Positions 1 through 12,847 of a stretch of 12,847 nt of DNA are shown one piece after another. Source of the DNA: a virus. Each line of letters begins with the position of its first letter. The stretch's first letter is position 1. The position numbers and the translations under genes are program-made. Location: the IMG/VR virus record IMGVR_UViG_3300045988_150412, one strand, 5' to 3'. The notes under the pieces are model-generated. The model was given only the letters and a program-made list of their open reading frames with translations. It was not told the DNA's origin and did no database searches.

Positions 1-189
1 CTCCCCTCCCCCCCCCCTTTTCCAAACACGCATAATTAAAACAACTGTGCACATTTTTAGGATGATGGGTGTATATAAAACAGATGTGCATAGTTTTATG
101 ATAATGGGCGTGTATAATATGATTGTATATATTTTGGGTGTAAGTGTTTTTAATTAAACATTGGTTAGGCGTTGGGGTTGACACGGAAA
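1..189. repeat. Left inverted terminal repeat, 189 bp. Begins with 'CTCCC CTCCC' followed by a C10 homopolymer. Contains three iterated TGGGYGTRTA motifs. Its inner edge carries a TTGACA -35 hexamer.
   Basis: Reverse complement of 12659..12847 matches 1..189 exactly. Identity ends after 'ttgacacggaaa'. Confidence 0.95.
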
Positions 190-427: not shown

Positions 428-1351
428 ATGGCGCGCAAGGATTATGATGTAGGAGCAGGAATGTTTTATCGATTAACAGATTTCACAGACAAACGTCAAC
501 GCGTCGCTGACTACATCATATACATGCTATCAAGAACAGCTCAGATGTTCGAGTATGACGGATTACCTGAAACTATTCCGCGTTTGAATTTAGAGCGTTT
601 AATACAAACGCATGGCCATGTCTGCGTTACAAATGTTAACGGTGAGTTATATGCTCTATTTGGAGGTTTAGGCGGAGAGCCTAGCCCTTATTACATGCCT
701 ACAATCTATACGGTTGCTAATCCGGCTTTAAATTATGACGCCAATTTAGTAATTGGACAAGATTGCGAAATCATTTACAATGATTCGATGTGGTACGGAT
801 TGATGCCCTTGTTCCGCAGGTATGCGTCGTTGCTCGTAGAAAATGACATATCCATGCGCATGGTCAACGTAAATTCCCGCGTGTCGATGCTTATTAAAAC
901 TCAATCGGAGCGCGAAGCATCGTCCGCTAGACAATTCTTATGCGACATAGAAGCCGGAAAGCAGGGTGTTTGCGCTGAAAGCTCTTTCGTGGAAGGTCTT
1001 AACACACTCCCCTATTCAACCCCGTCAAGCGGTCGAGATGTTACAAGTCTGATTGAATATCAACAATATTTAAAAGCGTCGTGGTTTAATGAGTTAGGGC
1101 TTAATGCTAACTACAATATGAAAAGAGAGGCGATTAATAGCGAAGAGGCGCAATTGAATGAGGACGCTTTATTACCCCTCGTTGATGATATGCTATCGTG
1201 TAGACAAGAGTGTTTGGATAAAGTTAACGCAATGTATGGAACCAATATTTCAGTTAAATTTAAATCTGCGTGGAAAATCAATAATGAAGAAATGAATGAA
1301 CCCGTTGAAGATGTAGAAATTAAGGAGGTGGAAAATGATGAAACTGATTGA
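428..1351 (+). CDS. Head-tail connector (portal) protein, phi29 gp10-like, 307 aa.
   Basis: Same length class as phi29 gp10 (309 aa). Recalled similarity: N-terminus MARK..., a Q(L/M)FE(W/Y)..LP.TI.P..LE..I block, and a C-terminal ...C..K(I/V)N..YG.N(V/I).VKF block. Strong RBS 'AAAGAGGTGGTG' upstream. Confidence 0.7.
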   Translation: MARKDYDVGAGMFYRLTDFTDKRQRVADYIIYMLSRTAQMFEYDGLPETIPRLNLERLIQTHGHVCVTNVNGELYALFGGLGGEPSPYYMPTIYTVANPALNYDANLVIGQDCEIIYNDSMWYGLMPLFRRYASLLVENDISMRMVNVNSRVSMLIKTQSEREASSARQFLCDIEAGKQGVCAESSFVEGLNTLPYSTPSSGRDVTSLIEYQQYLKASWFNELGLNANYNMKREAINSEEAQLNEDALLPLVDDMLSCRQECLDKVNAMYGTNISVKFKSAWKINNEEMNEPVEDVEIKEVENDETD

Positions 1352-3134
1352 TCTATTCCCGAACTGGTTGACAGGGGGCGGAATATTCGTTCTCTTTAAT
1401 AACCCCCCTTGGGTAGACGATGTAGAATCTTCGGCGCTCGATGTTGAATATTTCGGCAATCGTTCAGGCGAAAAGCTTATTGCTCCATTATTAAATAAAT
1501 TAATGGTTGATGACCAAATTTCTGATGCCAATCGGCAGAAACTTGTAAATGCTATCTGGGCTCGTTTCGGGAAAAATTGGACAAAATTGTATAATACTCT
1601 TAAAGAGGAATACAATCCGATTGAAAATTATAATATGACTGAGAAGGGTACATATACAGATACCGATACCGGGTCATTAGATCGTAGTGATAAAGTCGAA
1701 TATGGTAAAACGGTAAACAGCACCTCCGGGCAACAGTCTACTTCTCATGATCAATATTATGGTTTTAACGTATCCCAAGCCGGATCAGGCAAAAACACCA
1801 ACGGCACGGATGCGAACATAAGCGGACAGGGGTCTAATACTGAGGGTGGTCAGGATACAAAGACAGGTAGAGATACGCATACTTATAATAAAAGCGGGTC
1901 GACTACACACACCAGAAGCGGGAATATAGGCGTAACTACTACGCAACAGCTTATCGAATCTGAGCGTAATTTATGGCTCTGGAATTATTTTGACGCGGTA
2001 TTTTCTGACGTGGACACCATGCTTGTATTACAAGTGTTCGGTTTTGATTCGTGTTGTTACGAATACGCGCCCGGTTCCGGCGGTTCGTCTTATATCCTTC
2101 CTGTAGCTACAGCCACCACCTTGGGTGGTGTTAAATTACGCGGGGCGTCTTCGGTGGCAAATCATTACGCGGCAATCGACACTGACGGATACGTGAAATA
2201 CCAATATCCGGGCTTGGCTTCATACAGCAACTATGGCCTTGTTCGGCCGGTAAATAAAACCGGCAATATGTCACAGGCCGTTGGCGTTGACGAGTTCGGT
2301 CAGCTATTCACAGCTCCGAGCGGTGAATCTTACGTTCTCCCGGTGGCATCTCCAACCACCTTGGGCGGCGTGATGCCGGTCAATAAAACGTCGGCCATGT
2401 CTCAGCCGGTCGGCGTTGATGCTACAGGTCAGCTATTCACTGCTCCAAGCGGAGAATCTTACGTTCTCCCGGTGGCATCTTCAACCACCTTGGGAGGCGT
2501 GATGCCGGTCAATAAAACGTCGGCCATGTCTCAGCCGGTCGGCGTTGATGCTACAGGTCAGCTATTCACTGCTCCAAGCGGAGAATCTTACGTTCTCCCG
2601 GTGGCATCTTCAACCACCTTGGGAGGCGTGATGCCGGTCAATAAAACGTCGGCCATGTCTCAGCCGGTCGGCGTTGATGCTACAGGCCACTTATACACGG
2701 CTCCGGGCTCAGGCGTTGAAACGGCTCCGTTCTTATCGCAATCGGTTCACATTTCCGGGGTTCAAACAATCACAGAAACAAACGTTAATGTAGATTTAAA
2801 TATAGCTAACGTGTCTGGAAATTGGGATTATGTAGGATATGACGGCACAACTGCAGACATTGCGGACGATGAGCAAACATATGTTTCAGCGGTTCTTATA
2901 TGCTCTGGAGCTGGGAACACCGTGGTGCGTGTGGGAATTATTGACGGCACCAACACCGAGACCCCCTTGATTTCCGGGAATTTAGTTCACACGTCAAATA
3001 CAATTACTATTTTATCGGTTTCTGACATGCCTTTAAATTTAGCCCCCGGCGATTTCAGAGTACAAGTAAACACAGAGGATCAATTAAATGTGTTGATGGG
3101 CACGGTTACATTTAAGAAGAGAATTTTAAATTAG
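1335..3134 (+). CDS. Tail fiber / appendage (receptor-binding) protein, 599 aa, with 43-aa tandem repeats. The N-terminal ~150 aa may be a collar-attachment domain.
   Basis: Three near-identical 43-aa repeats 'SYVLPVAS(S/P)TTLGGVMPVNKTSAMSQPVGVDATGQLFTAPSGE', plus a degenerate upstream copy. The A(S/T)xxTLGGV pattern recalls phage tail-fibre repeat motifs. Ser/Thr/Gly/Asn-rich composition. Located directly after the connector gene. Confidence 0.55.
   Translation: MMKLIDLFPNWLTGGGIFVLFNNPPWVDDVESSALDVEYFGNRSGEKLIAPLLNKLMVDDQISDANRQKLVNAIWARFGKNWTKLYNTLKEEYNPIENYNMTEKGTYTDTDTGSLDRSDKVEYGKTVNSTSGQQSTSHDQYYGFNVSQAGSGKNTNGTDANISGQGSNTEGGQDTKTGRDTHTYNKSGSTTHTRSGNIGVTTTQQLIESERNLWLWNYFDAVFSDVDTMLVLQVFGFDSCCYEYAPGSGGSSYILPVATATTLGGVKLRGASSVANHYAAIDTDGYVKYQYPGLASYSNYGLVRPVNKTGNMSQAVGVDEFGQLFTAPSGESYVLPVASPTTLGGVMPVNKTSAMSQPVGVDATGQLFTAPSGESYVLPVASSTTLGGVMPVNKTSAMSQPVGVDATGQLFTAPSGESYVLPVASSTTLGGVMPVNKTSAMSQPVGVDATGHLYTAPGSGVETAPFLSQSVHISGVQTITETNVNVDLNIANVSGNWDYVGYDGTTADIADDEQTYVSAVLICSGAGNTVVRVGIIDGTNTETPLISGNLVHTSNTITILSVSDMPLNLAPGDFRVQVNTEDQLNVLMGTVTFKKRILN
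2322..2708 (+). repeat. Tandem direct repeat, 129-bp unit in 3 copies. Copies 2 and 3 are essentially identical. It sits inside the fiber gene.
   Basis: 'gaatcttacgttctcccggtggcatc...' recurs at 2325, 2454 and 2583, giving a period of 129 nt (43 codons, in frame). Confidence 0.9.
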
Positions 3135-6607: not shown

Positions 6608-7377
6608 TGAATATCATCGAATCTTTTTTAACTAAAAACGATTGTTATAAACAAGGAAAAAAGCTAAAACTTGAGGGCTTAATGCTCCACTCAGTCGCAT
6701 GCCCTCAGCCCAAGGCTTCGGTCTTCGTTAAAAGCTGGAACCGCTCCGGCATTAAGAAGTGTGTTCATGCGTTTATTGATGCGAAAAATGGATATGTGTA
6801 TCAAACATTGCCTTGGCTAATGCGAGGCTGGCACGGTGGAAAGAAGTACAGCAACGATCATTATATTGGCGTTGAGATGTGTGAACCTTCATGCATTGAA
6901 TACACTGGAGGATCAACTTTTAAAATGAAAGATCCCGCTCAAGCTCTGGCTCAAATTAAAAACGCTTATAATTCAGCCGTGGAGCTATTTGCGTTTTTAT
7001 GTTTGAAATATAATTTAAAACCTAGCTCAATTTGTTCTCATCGCGAAGGTCATGCCAAAGGTATCGCGAGTGATCACGGCGACCCGGAACACCTATGGAG
7101 GTGTTCCGGCTTCGGAAAAACAATGACCGACTTTCGCGCAGATGTGGCGCGTGAGATCCAACAACAAAAGGGAGGTGATGAAGTGACGCAAGAGGATTTC
7201 AATAAAATGATGAATACTTATTTAGAAGAACGCTCGAAAGAACCAAAATCCGATTGGGTCAACGCTAACGACGCCGCAGGCATCATGCATGGCGACGCAG
7301 ACGGCGCCATGCGCTGGCGTTCCTTTGTGACGCGCGAAGAAGCTGTTACTATGATCGCGCGCGCGATCAAAAAATAA
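6607..7377 (+). CDS. Endolysin: N-acetylmuramoyl-L-alanine amidase (Amidase_2/PGRP fold) with an SLH-like C-terminal motif, 256 aa.
   Basis: N-terminus 'MNIIESF...' parallels B. subtilis XlyA 'MVNIIQDF'. Zn-ligand-type H...H...C spacing (HSVAC, GWHGG, HREGH). C-terminus 'GIMHGDADGAMRWRSFVTREEAVTMIARA' resembles an S-layer-homology half-repeat. TGATG overlap with the upstream stop. Confidence 0.8.
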   Translation: MNIIESFLTKNDCYKQGKKLKLEGLMLHSVACPQPKASVFVKSWNRSGIKKCVHAFIDAKNGYVYQTLPWLMRGWHGGKKYSNDHYIGVEMCEPSCIEYTGGSTFKMKDPAQALAQIKNAYNSAVELFAFLCLKYNLKPSSICSHREGHAKGIASDHGDPEHLWRCSGFGKTMTDFRADVAREIQQQKGGDEVTQEDFNKMMNTYLEERSKEPKSDWVNANDAAGIMHGDADGAMRWRSFVTREEAVTMIARAIKK

Positions 7378-7405
7378 GAGAGGTTTAAACCTCTCTTATT
7401 TTTTT
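7376..7405. terminator. Bidirectional rho-independent terminator between the two convergent operons.
   Basis: Perfect 22-nt palindrome 'aagagaggtttaaacctctctt' at 7376-7397. It is flanked by an A-run upstream (7369-7375) and a T-run downstream (7398-7405), so it reads as stem plus U-tract on both strands. Confidence 0.8.
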
Positions 7406-8490
7406 GATCCGCACCATATGACGTAATTTCTCACAAGATCACCGACTTCGTTGTCTTGGTAGAAAATCTTATCATTAGAAAACAGCGCATGAATCTTTTT
7501 TTCAATTTTAGTTACCGGTCTTAAAATTGATCGTCTCCAATTGGGGCGCGGATCATAATCCGGGCTGTATATGAGGTCACCATCAGGATCTTTCAATTCG
7601 GTTGTTTTTCTATGAATATATATAAATGTACTCTCTTCCACATTGACACACTCACATTGAAGCATTTCGTCGTTAAATAATATGAAAAAGGTGAAATCTA
7701 CGTTTACAGGTGTATACTTGATAGGGCAATGAGGATAAATATCAAGCTCCCAAACACCTGTTTTTATCATTTGCAATTTAGGATTATCAAATGCAAAATA
7801 AGTATCTGAAGCTTTACCACCTTGCCCCGCCGCGGTAGCGCAATATTCAACGGCGACACGAAGATCAGAAGATCCGTATGTGTATAGGTCAATGTCTCCG
7901 GGCTTCATTTGTTTAACGTGTGTTAGCCCCATTTCTGAAAAATAGGGGCAATATTGGTTAACCGTATTGCCGCACATGAAAATCTTCACGTTGCTTCTGT
8001 GCCGAATAATCGTGCTTAAACAATTCATGAATAGCACGAACTCATCTGGAAGATACGCGCGTCGTGTCAAAAATTCATCGAATAAAACAGTTGTAATATT
8101 TGGGAATGACGAACTTTTGTCATGTTCCATTGAAGAAATTGAAAACCCGAAAGCAAAGGGGTCTTCGTCCCTTATTACATTCTTCGGATCGTCAGGATCT
8201 TTAAATTGGAGCCACCAACGTCCCGAATAATAATAAACGCTGTTCCATGCGCCATTTGTCAGCCGCTCCACAGCTCCCGTTTCAATGTGGCCGTCAAAGA
8301 GAGATGCGCCGCGTTTACCTTTCAAGTCATCCTGCCATCTTCTTATTATTGCCGTTTGTTCGTGATACTTGGAGTACCGATCTAATGCGTATTCAAGAAC
8401 GGCGTAGGTCTTGCCGTTCGATCTTTCACCAAAGATCATATTATATTGAGCTTTTTTGCTCAATATCTTTTTTAGTCTGTAAAATTTCAT
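7396..8490 (-). CDS. DNA packaging (encapsidation) ATPase, phi29 gp16-like, 364 aa.
   Basis: Walker A 'GERSNGKTYA' at residues 21-30, matching phi29 gp16 'GARGIGKSYA'. Walker B block 'NITTVLFDEFLTRR' matches 'NVSTIVFDEFIREK'. 'VKIFMCGNTVNQYCPYF' matches 'VRCICLSNAVSVVNPYF'. RBS 'AGGGGT'. Overlaps the polymerase 3' end by 50 nt. Confidence 0.8.
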   Translation of the reverse strand: MKFYRLKKILSKKAQYNMIFGERSNGKTYAVLEYALDRYSKYHEQTAIIRRWQDDLKGKRGASLFDGHIETGAVERLTNGAWNSVYYYSGRWWLQFKDPDDPKNVIRDEDPFAFGFSISSMEHDKSSSFPNITTVLFDEFLTRRAYLPDEFVLFMNCLSTIIRHRSNVKIFMCGNTVNQYCPYFSEMGLTHVKQMKPGDIDLYTYGSSDLRVAVEYCATAAGQGGKASDTYFAFDNPKLQMIKTGVWELDIYPHCPIKYTPVNVDFTFFILFNDEMLQCECVNVEESTFIYIHRKTTELKDPDGDLIYSPDYDPRPNWRRSILRPVTKIEKKIHALFSNDKIFYQDNEVGDLVRNYVIWCGSKK

Positions 8491-10603
8491 TTATACCCCT
8501 TTTTAAATAATCTTTAAACTCGCGCGCAAATGTCATGTCATAAGACGCACCGGAAAGATGCACACTGCTGTACTCATGATAATACCCCTCATTGCCGGCA
8601 TAATCAACAACATGTCCCTCCTGCTCGCGGTCAATATAAGTATGTATATTCTTCCCCGTTGCTTCTTCAGGGAAAAAAAGCCCCTCTTTAAATAGATCGA
8701 ACGGATCGCGATCTTTCGACAATAGCCAAGGCACGGCTTTTTTCTTATTAACGCCAGATACTGTGATAGATAATTCACCGTCAATTTCAGTCATATACCT
8801 TTTAGCCCCCAAGGTTTTAAACCTTGTATACGTACCTTCATATTCCCACACACCCAAAGGCTTGGACTGGCCTTTAATGGTTCGGGGCGCGGCTTTCGTC
8901 TCGTCTATTTTATGATATTTTAACGCATTTTTTACACGCTTTTGTATATCGGCATTATATCGTTCAAAATAATCCATATGCTTTTCCGCGTTTATAAATT
9001 TAACTGAATCCGTATCGCTGTAAACATAATCTTGACCTAATTCGTATATCGCGGAAAAGAGGTTCCGGCGCGCGTATGCCGTTACCCACACCCCCCAAAG
9101 GTAAGACAAGAACCTGCCTTTTGAGTTGTTGTATTTTTCTATTTCCTCTGAAACATCGGCGCTCTTCCTGCACCAGCCATTCACATTATAGATATTTTCA
9201 TCTCGGCAAATGTCTGTTACACACATGCCGTAAGCAGAATTTATATCTTGCTTTGCTAGCAAATAATCCAATTCCGAACCTTCCACCCCCTTGAGTGTGG
9301 TTTTTGATTCGTACAATGTTATAATTTCGTTCACAAAATCAGTCGGTAAATGCCCCCTGCGATATACAAACATCATCCCCACAGCCATGTGTTCCCATTG
9401 GTAGAATTTTTCTAATGTGAAAAAATCTTGTTCAGTTAAAGATGTGTAGACCGTATCAGCCCACACCACACGACCGTTATTGATCTGTCGCGATCCCTCT
9501 ATTTTACATTTCGACGCTGAAAGTGGATTGTCGTGCCAAAGGCGCGGTGTCAAGCCTTCAAACTTAATATTAAACATGCAACAGTATTTTTTCAAATACC
9601 GCCTAAATTCTAACTTATTTTCAGGTTCCACCCTTTGACCCTTTGACATGGGGAAAAGTTCGGACACCATAACCGTTGGATATGATGACGCAAGATCATA
9701 TGACGCAACATCATTGACCGTGACCCCCACATATTTATAATGCGCATGAGTGAATCCGCCTTGAAATGCGGATTTCGCGAGCTCATACTCTTCAGGCTCT
9801 AATGTTAACCTGCTCATTAATTTATGATTGTTCAACCATTTATAAGGCGAATCCTTAGTCTGCCGGGTGCAGGCACGCCTAAACCTGCGGCGCACATATC
9901 CGGTTTTAGTTAGCGGAATCTTCCAAATATATCCACCTTCGGTTTGCATTTTTTCGTAAATACCTGCTTGTACTATTTGAATATCTCTGATGCAATACCC
10001 GATTTCTTTATCGGTCAGTATTGTGTCGGAATGTCTGACTTTTGAATAATCGAGATCCCCGGTCAGCTTCTCCATTTTAACGTGTGTGAAATGTTTACTC
10101 CAATCATCCAGAGAGTATCCTGTCAAAATGTATGAGCAACGGAACTCTACACCGTCCACCGTGCGGGCTTTAATCGGTTTTCGATCATCAAGAGCGAAGA
10201 CATTAGCCCACTCAAATCGTTGACAAATAAACTGAAATTCGTAACTTAAATTATGCACGTATACAACCATTCTAAAAGTGTCGCCAAGATTGAACATCCG
10301 AACCAAACGGCTTATTAAAATGTCGAATTGCTCCCAAGTTCGGCCGTAGATGTTCACGCCGCTTATACCAAACTGCCATACGTACATAAACGCGACCTTT
10401 TCACCGCCTAACGTGTATGTGCTTGTTGTCTCAATGTCAAAAGCCGCGGGCGCGTTCAACCAGCAGACCTTTTTTGTGTCTTTAGAAAATCCCAAATTTA
10501 GAGATTTTATGCGATCTATGAAGATATTCAATTGATTAAAACTGTAAACCTCAGTCAAGAGGTTTGAAGAAGTCGCTAACTGATGCCCGATCTGCATAGC
10601 CAT
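8441..10603 (-). CDS. Protein-primed family-B DNA polymerase with 3'-5' exonuclease, ~720 aa.
   Basis: Exo I 'FDIETTS'. Exo II 'YVHNLSYEF'. Exo III 'YCIRDIQI'. Motif A 'YDLASSYPT' (Dx2SxYP). Motif B 'KQDINSAYG' (Kx3NSxYG). Motif C 'YVYSDTDS'. KxY 'GAKRYM'. The track start at 10606 is GTG, and the first ATG is at 10603. Its 5' end overlaps the upstream ORF. Confidence 0.95.
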   Translation of the reverse strand: MAMQIGHQLATSSNLLTEVYSFNQLNIFIDRIKSLNLGFSKDTKKVCWLNAPAAFDIETTSTYTLGGEKVAFMYVWQFGISGVNIYGRTWEQFDILISRLVRMFNLGDTFRMVVYVHNLSYEFQFICQRFEWANVFALDDRKPIKARTVDGVEFRCSYILTGYSLDDWSKHFTHVKMEKLTGDLDYSKVRHSDTILTDKEIGYCIRDIQIVQAGIYEKMQTEGGYIWKIPLTKTGYVRRRFRRACTRQTKDSPYKWLNNHKLMSRLTLEPEEYELAKSAFQGGFTHAHYKYVGVTVNDVASYDLASSYPTVMVSELFPMSKGQRVEPENKLEFRRYLKKYCCMFNIKFEGLTPRLWHDNPLSASKCKIEGSRQINNGRVVWADTVYTSLTEQDFFTLEKFYQWEHMAVGMMFVYRRGHLPTDFVNEIITLYESKTTLKGVEGSELDYLLAKQDINSAYGMCVTDICRDENIYNVNGWCRKSADVSEEIEKYNNSKGRFLSYLWGVWVTAYARRNLFSAIYELGQDYVYSDTDSVKFINAEKHMDYFERYNADIQKRVKNALKYHKIDETKAAPRTIKGQSKPLGVWEYEGTYTRFKTLGAKRYMTEIDGELSITVSGVNKKKAVPWLLSKDRDPFDLFKEGLFFPEEATGKNIHTYIDREQEGHVVDYAGNEGYYHEYSSVHLSGASYDMTFAREFKDYLKRGINEILQTKKDIEQKSSI

Positions 10604-12658: not shown

Positions 12659-12847
12659 TTTCCGTGTCAACCCCAACGCCTAACCAATGTTTAATTAAAA
12701 ACACTTACACCCAAAATATATACAATCATATTATACACGCCCATTATCATAAAACTATGCACATCTGTTTTATATACACCCATCATCCTAAAAATGTGCA
12801 CAGTTGTTTTAATTATGCGTGTTTGGAAAAGGGGGGGGGGAGGGGAG
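12659..12847. repeat. Right inverted terminal repeat, 189 bp, a mirror copy of 1..189.
   Basis: Direct comparison of the window end with the reverse complement of the window start. The terminal 'ggggggggggaggggag' mirrors the 5' 'ctcccctcccccccccc'. Confidence 0.95.

Follow-up and report, generated by a model that had tools for sequence, protein, structure and literature searches.

A T-interrupted C-tract at the tips of an uncultured phi29-like podophage genome as a candidate subterminal origin element

The C-rich sequence at both tips of the IMG/VR record IMGVR_UViG_3300045988_150412 (12,847 nt, analyzed over its whole length and called the window here) appears to be a real subterminal element of a protein-primed replication origin, carried by a contig whose tip lacks a few bases. 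We regard this reading, drawn from sequence comparison, as moderately probable. The missing part is most likely about three terminal bases, most parsimoniously 5'-GGG. A suspected artifact at the contig ends thereby becomes a usable comparative signal.

Gene content and terminal repeats of the window

The window is the complete-looking 12.8-kb genome of a phi29-like podophage with a protein-primed polymerase and inverted terminal repeats (ITR). Genes on the plus strand encode a holin, a connector (PF05352), a head-fiber-like protein, the Phi29-type capsid protein (PF25622, E=1e-56), tail proteins and an amidase, and those on the minus strand the gp16 packaging ATPase, the protein-primed family-B polymerase and small early genes. 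The phi29-type morphogenesis and packaging module was present (PF05352, PF25622 and PF05894; PHROGs 2038, 2006, and 2150), and the polymerase matched PF03175 (DNA_pol_B_2; E=5e-13), PHROG 1907 (E=2e-62) and the phi29 polymerase (PDB 1XHX; E=1e-4). The first-pass annotation had called the window a protein-primed replicon, which is borne out by the ITR, the polymerase (pPolB), the connector, the Phi29-type capsid protein and the gp16 ATPase. No packaging pRNA family was found in an Rfam E-value scan of the whole window, a scan that could miss a divergent pRNA.

The polymerase was 43-51% identical to those of Astrithrvirus-like phages. The nearest cultured relatives are the Astrithrvirus-like phages of Gram-negative bacteria, namely Salmonella Astrid/astrithr, Pectobacterium DU_PP_III, Acinetobacter Phanie, Vibrio K58 g2, and Enterobacter Entb_47 (capsid protein, MCP, 54-58% and polymerase 43-46% identical), and the closest relatives in IMG/VR had values of 65-68% and 48-51%, respectively. 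An MCP profile search of IMG/VR detected about 490 relatives, 130 of which were retrieved. Megablast and blastn searches of the genome and of the ITR against phage records gave no close relative, and MCP scans of metagenomes and GTDB gave relatives at 52-63% identity only, mostly with incomplete ends. Hadza gut assemblies contained the same phage. The window is a new, uncultured member of the protein-primed phi29-like/Astrithrvirus-like phages with long ITRs.

Two features lie outside the terminal regions. Three tandem 129-nt (43-aa) repeats, 89-92% identical, were found at 2268-2704 within the head-fiber-like gene (ORF 1335-3134); its product is 556, 599, 610, or 611 aa long depending on the strain, a variation that suggests changes of copy number in a surface-exposed protein. 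The amidase and gp16 ATPase genes converge on a 36-nt perfect palindrome at 7369-7404 (AAAAAATAAGAGAGGTTT / AAACCTCTCTTATTTTTT), which lies exactly in between and probably terminates transcription from both directions at the meeting point of the two units.

Table 1. Terminal and replication features of the window.
Feature	Position	Strand	Basis or remark
Left inverted terminal repeat (ITR-L)	1..189	+	100% complementary to 12659-12847
Right inverted terminal repeat (ITR-R)	12659..12847	-	
C-rich tract CTCCCCTCCCCCCCCCC, C10 at 8-17	1..17	+	Proposed subterminal core-origin element; within the window only at the two tips
Mirror copy of the C-rich tract	12831..12847	-	G-rich 3' end of the plus strand
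Conserved ITR core TTTTCCAAACACGCATAATTAAAACAACTGT	18..48	+	Matches the beginning of independent contig L270 almost exactly
Two 39-nt tandem direct repeats, 79% identity, inside the ITR	37..114	+	
Protein-primed family-B DNA polymerase	8441..10597	-	Pfam, PHROG and PDB matches
Terminal-protein candidate, 191 aa, GenBank DAM55055.1	10551..11126	-	Synteny

The first 27 nucleotides of the window (CTCCCCTCCCCCCCCCCTTTTCCAAAC) are identical to the reverse complement of 12821-12847, as had been reported, and this mirror is the outer edge of an ITR of 189 nt with 100% identity between its copies. The template 3' end, ...GGGGGGGGGGAGGGGAG, likewise agrees with its earlier description. The same description gave the tip as CTCCC twice followed by ten C; the pentamer does occur twice at 1-10, but it is CTCCCCTCCC followed by seven C, since the C10 run begins within the second unit and takes in its final three C. 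The pentamer "repeat" is just a C tract broken by T at two positions 5 nt apart, and the unit occurs only twice. A search for C10 with at most one mismatch gave 14 overlapping matches, all at the two termini (0.23 expected; none of 200 shuffles reached 14), and the 23-nt all-pyrimidine run at 1-23 was the single occurrence in the window (0.01 expected). The C run could be a base or two longer or shorter than deposited. Since graph assemblers merge both copies of an ITR into a single node and use it twice, the identity of the two ends is not independent evidence; in a MEGAHIT k119 contig of the same phage, the ITR was exactly 119 nt long.

An independent contig of a related strain (L270; MEGAHIT k141; terminal-protein candidate 62% identical) starts C-TTTCCAAACACGCATAATTAAAACAACTGT, almost the same as window 17-48. 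The outer 50 nt or so of the ITR is nearly identical in this contig, and the tract junction C-TTTCCAAAC is kept. In alignment A3, the motif TTTCC(C/A)AAC..GCAT..TTAAC of the ITR core was common to the window and a clade of relatives whose ends read AAAGGTA. Each of the 39-nt repeats ends in ATGGG(T/C)GTGTATA, and a third, partial copy lies at 119-131; a DNA-binding protein associated with the origin may recognize these repeats as iterated sites. A hairpin formed by the template 3' end was rejected on its DNA fold score (z=+0.84). A perfect sigma-70 consensus promoter (TTGACA-17-TATAAT, 12/12) at 178-206 spans the left ITR boundary, with its -35 box inside the ITR and its -10 box in unique DNA, and faces the holin and structural operon; the right end has the same -35 box with different sequence downstream.

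C-tracts and termini across the family

Homologous C-tracts, likewise interrupted by T, were internal to the ITR, with unique sequence on both sides, in three independently sequenced isolates. The end of DU_PP_III (219-nt ITR) reads GGGATATCCG-CCCCCCCCCC-GTTCG, with C10 before GTTCG; that of Phanie (171-nt ITR) reads GGGTTATCCG-CCCCCCTCCT-ATCC, with a C6TCCT tract; and that of K58 g2 reads GGGCTATCCT-CCCCCCTCCCCCT-ACTCG, with a C6TC5T tract that exemplifies a position behind a terminal GGG (GGGCTATCCT-CCCCCCTCCCCC). Metagenomic relatives had the same kind of end (L158, GGGTATAT-C8-TCC; L167, GGATACCCCG-C9-TCCCC), homologous tracts also were detected in L152, L229, and L235, and the tip of PRD1 reads GGGGATACGTG-CCCCTCCCC-ACC. 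The spacing of the T residues was 7 and 6 in K58 g2 and 3 in Phanie, and PRD1 has a single T. The double CTCCC is not conserved: the T spacings differ, and the ends of relatives lack any pentamer repeat. Compared across these genomes, the C-tract itself is genuine and conserved. Exact ITR patterns had no match within the phage family in IMG/VR, and the pattern GGGNTATCCNCCCCCC had 91 matches there, 80 of which were inspected and were all unrelated or internal. The Vibrio K58 g2 record (OZ195715.1; L036) is permuted, its real termini being joined by 100 N at 7213-7312, and its deposited start and end are therefore not genome ends. A 132-nt ITR copy flanks the N's on each side; an inverted-repeat tool gives 232-nt arms since the N's pair.

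A survey of 257 distinct family contig ends, from which adapters had been stripped, showed where such tracts lie. The commonest start triplets were AAA (26 ends), GGG (13) and CCC (11). A run of at least six C began at nt 9-11 in all GGG- or GGA-starting ends that had a C-tract; starts at nt 1-6 were confined to ends that lack GGG (L152, GT-C10; L229, G-C10; L235, C10; L172; L194). The start GGGATAG was shared by four independent contigs among the closest IMG/VR relatives of the window (L135, L140, L145, and L146). A terminal G-run was present in these four, in L158 and in DU_PP_III, Phanie, and K58 g2, and is absent from the window as deposited, which starts CTCCCC; judged against these ends, its absence may reflect truncation. 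The termini of relatives were heterogeneous (GGGATAG..., AAAGGTA..., GGGNTATCC...). All six TruSeq-adapter-fused ends read AAAGGTA, showing that exact family termini carry homotrimers. Retained Illumina adapters (TruSeq or Nextera) are contamination in public IMG/VR records, although TruSeq fusions mark exact termini; the sites were 1-49 in L007, the 5' ends of L169, L170, L179, L180, L206, L224, L259, L262, and L264, and the 3' ends of L197 and L204.

Assemblies of the family often stop within or beside the C-tract, and the first base of the window is therefore probably not the terminus. Truncation at the tract was seen directly in L172, which is L167 minus 6 nt, and the two ends of the Entb_47 isolate differ by 5 nt and both begin inside the tract. 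Three contigs (L152, L229, and L235) start 0-2 nt ahead of a C10, and L270 starts at the inner edge of its tract. Contigs of the same or related phages, found by exact-protein look-ups with the connector, the holin, a 100-aa ORF, the terminal-protein candidate and its variants, stop around the ITR boundary or 30 nt into it (Logan, k=31), exactly k nt into it (MEGAHIT k119) or at the tract's inner border (L270). ITR-only contigs were found neither by way of the ORF running off the tip (51-aa and 31-aa versions) nor by homology search.

The C10 of the window starts at nt 8, and three more bases would place it at nt 11, as in DU_PP_III, Phanie, K58 g2, and L167. Window 1-7 (CTCCCCT) matches K58 g2 nt 4-10 (CTATCCT) at five of seven positions. 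MAFFT placed the window 2 nt (alignment A2) or 11 nt (A3) inside the ends of its relatives, the low-complexity tips making the placement ambiguous, so that the exact count of missing bases is uncertain. The relatives behind the proposed truncation are distant, with polymerases at most 51% and terminal-protein candidates about 30% identical.

Initiation at the genome ends and its alternatives

Protein-primed replication starts in different ways in the systems characterized to date. In PRD1, initiation occurs with dGMP at the fourth C of 3'-CCCC and is followed by stepwise sliding-back; in phi29, it occurs at the second T of 3'-TTT, again with sliding-back; and in adenovirus, pTP-CAT is made on 3'-GTAGTA before jumping-back, a mechanism established for terminal reiterations in adenovirus and Bam35 (PMC5175343). 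The PRD1 origin requires the terminal 20 bp of the ITR, and adenovirus pTP/pol recognizes positions 8-17 (PMC4150772). By analogy with PRD1 and adenovirus, the C-tract of the window would be the subterminal core origin recognized by the heterodimer of terminal protein (TP) and polymerase, and it probably marks where replication proteins bind. The true genome end would be 5'-GGGCTCCCCT-C10-TTTTCC, and would be expected as 5'-GGGCTCCCC. With such an end, dGMP would be the initiating nucleotide, paired with an internal C of the template's 3'-CCC, and stepwise sliding-back would follow as in PRD1; a 3'-CCCGAGGGGAGGGGGGGGGG template would give dGMP-TP. The GGG and AAA triplets conserved at complete family ends are, by their sequence, a classical sliding-back substrate.

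The TP candidate is encoded directly upstream of the polymerase gene, which its gene overlaps, and homologs occupy the same place in relatives. AlphaFold predicts an all-alpha fold (pLDDT 77) whose C-terminal tail is disordered; the near-invariant Tyr177 in this tail is a plausible priming site. No match to known TPs was detected by sequence or fold in Pfam, PDB or Foldseek, and the assignment is therefore one of synteny only. The candidate scored 55-66 bits against the TPs of GGG-ended relatives and about 41 bits against those of AAA-ended relatives, a difference that weakly supports dGMP priming on 3'-CCC. The protein is annotated as an "uncharacterized Zn finger protein" in IMG and as hypothetical ("MAG TPA ... 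Caudoviricetes sp.") in GenBank; no obvious zinc-binding motif was seen in the model or the alignment.

It is unlikely, in our judgment, that the contig is complete and the C-rich tract truly terminal, with dCMP placed on the TP opposite a G near the 3' end and sliding in the G-rich template without a 5-nt jump. Such an arrangement would imply a lineage-specific change of both the terminus and the initiating nucleotide, and simple homopolymer sliding would not get past the T residues at nt 2 and nt 7. Termini do vary widely across the family, and L152, L229, and L235, which begin at or 0-2 nt from C10, could be read as having real termini of this kind; however, the number of bases before C10 (0, 1, 2, or 7) resembles random truncation, and every GGG-start end has its tract 9-11 nt inside. 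The identical ends of the window and an ITR that, at 189 nt, is longer than common k values speak for completeness, while the L167/L172 pair and Entb_47 show truncation directly.

The first-pass annotation had proposed that the genome terminates exactly at 5'-CTCCC CTCCC, that synthesis starts with dCMP opposite an internal G of the G-rich 3' template end and that TP-CTCCC jumps back 5 nt as in adenovirus; under this model, dCMP-TP and TP-CTCCC would be expected on a 3'-GAGGGGAGGGGGGGGGG template. A doubled pentamer is indeed present at 1-10, and jumping-back is an established mechanism in adenovirus and Bam35 (PMC5175343), but the two copies arise from a pair of T residues within a C tract, T spacing varies among the homologous tracts of K58 g2, Phanie, and PRD1, the tract is subterminal in complete-looking relatives, whose ends are GGG or AAA, and a conserved terminal reiteration of a pentamer was seen in no relative. 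Given also that assemblies stop at the tract, the 5-nt jump-back is unsupported and we consider it very improbable. If true, with the deposited ends real, the jump-back unit would be the longest known and the phage would be the first dCMP-primed tailed phage; dCMP rather than dGMP priming would mean dCTP-dependent TP labeling on a 3'-GAGGGGAGGG template. We give the least credence of all to a technical origin, that is, two-colour Illumina no-signal poly-G, a worry that had also been raised earlier, or an enzymatic tail, assembled onto the ends. The T interruptions lie at fixed positions, no adapter sequence separates the genome from the tract, the homologous tracts of three cultured isolates and PRD1 are internal and flanked by unique sequence, and the junction is kept in L270; these observations outweigh the location at contig ends, where homopolymers are error-prone, and the technical end sequence (TruSeq and Nextera adapters) that contigs of relatives do bear. 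The reading that we favor remains a subterminal C-tract behind a few missing bases.

Comparison with known protein-primed systems

The Astrithrvirus-like phages (DU_PP_III, MF979562; Phanie, OX458330; K58 g2, OZ195715; Salmonella Astrid/astrithr) resemble the window in genome size (10.4-11.9 kb vs. 12.8 kb) and in having perfect ITRs (171-219 nt vs. 189 nt), a C-rich tract of about 9-12 nt near the ITR tip and a shared set of modules comprising a replication block of small ORFs plus polymerase, the gp16 ATPase, the connector, the Phi29-type MCP and a lysin. Gene order differs, as does the way the replication block is oriented with respect to the structural block, and the isolates have GGG(N)TATCC(G/T) ahead of the tract where the window has CTCCCCT. 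The isolates infect Gram-negative bacteria, whereas the window is a human gut phage. The group includes helper-dependent satellites such as Phanie, a podophage described as needing attachment to the tail of a helper myophage to be infectious (PMC11476376, citing Pourcel et al. 2024). The recurring origin layout, in which GGG or AAA precedes a T-interrupted C-tract at roughly nt 11-22 of the ITR, occurs in this large, mostly uncultured family of 11-13-kb protein-primed podophages (about 490 IMG/VR relatives). Because metagenomic contigs of these phages commonly break off inside the tract or close to it, contig ends should not be used to deduce initiation mechanisms.

Phi29 shares with the window a related polymerase (1XHX) and the phi29-type connector, MCP and packaging ATPase. 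It differs in its 6-nt ITR, A/T ends and pRNA, compared with a 189-nt ITR, a C-rich tip and no pRNA found by Rfam in the window. A subclade of the relatives of the window has exact termini of 5'-AAAGGTA, close to the AAAGTA of phi29 (PMC11476376). The C/G-rich ends had been described as unusual, and this holds in comparison with the Bacillus phi29-like phages but not for the clade of the window or for PRD1 (5'-GGGGATACGTGCCCCTCCCC).

PRD1 (Alphatectivirus) is a tectivirus with an internal membrane and belongs to a different virus realm, yet it shares with the window a protein-primed linear genome with an ITR, and its tip has the layout of the Astrithrvirus-like ends: a G-run, about 7 nt and a T-interrupted C-tract at about nt 12-20. 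The C-tract falls within the first 20-22 nt or so of the ITR in each case (1-17 in the window, nt 12-20 in PRD1 and nt 11-22 in the isolates), and the recurring podophage layout mirrors that of PRD1, although PRD1 has a terminal G-run and the window as deposited does not. Comparison of the window with PRD1 proteins revealed no TP similarity and a polymerase alike at motif level only (BLASTP E=0.01); the analogy is accordingly one of DNA. No discussion of the likeness in layout was found in PMC11476376 or PMC13097653. If the PRD1-like layout is functional, dGMP priming is predicted, and the layout supplies defined oligonucleotide templates for origin recognition.

In adenovirus, the terminal reiteration is 3'-GTAGTA, dCMP is the initiating nucleotide and the core origin at 8-17 is bound by pTP/pol (PMC5175343; PMC4150772). 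Adenovirus has a reiteration, whereas the putative pentamer repeat of the window is not conserved in relatives; its subterminal recognition element, on the other hand, is a good analog of the C-tract. The arrangement of GGG, about 7 nt and a C-tract that is common to PRD1 (Varidnaviria) and the Astrithrvirus-like podophages (Duplodnaviria) points to either cross-realm exchange or convergence of protein-primed origin design, a proposal that the sequences support better than they do a 5-nt CTCCC jump-back.
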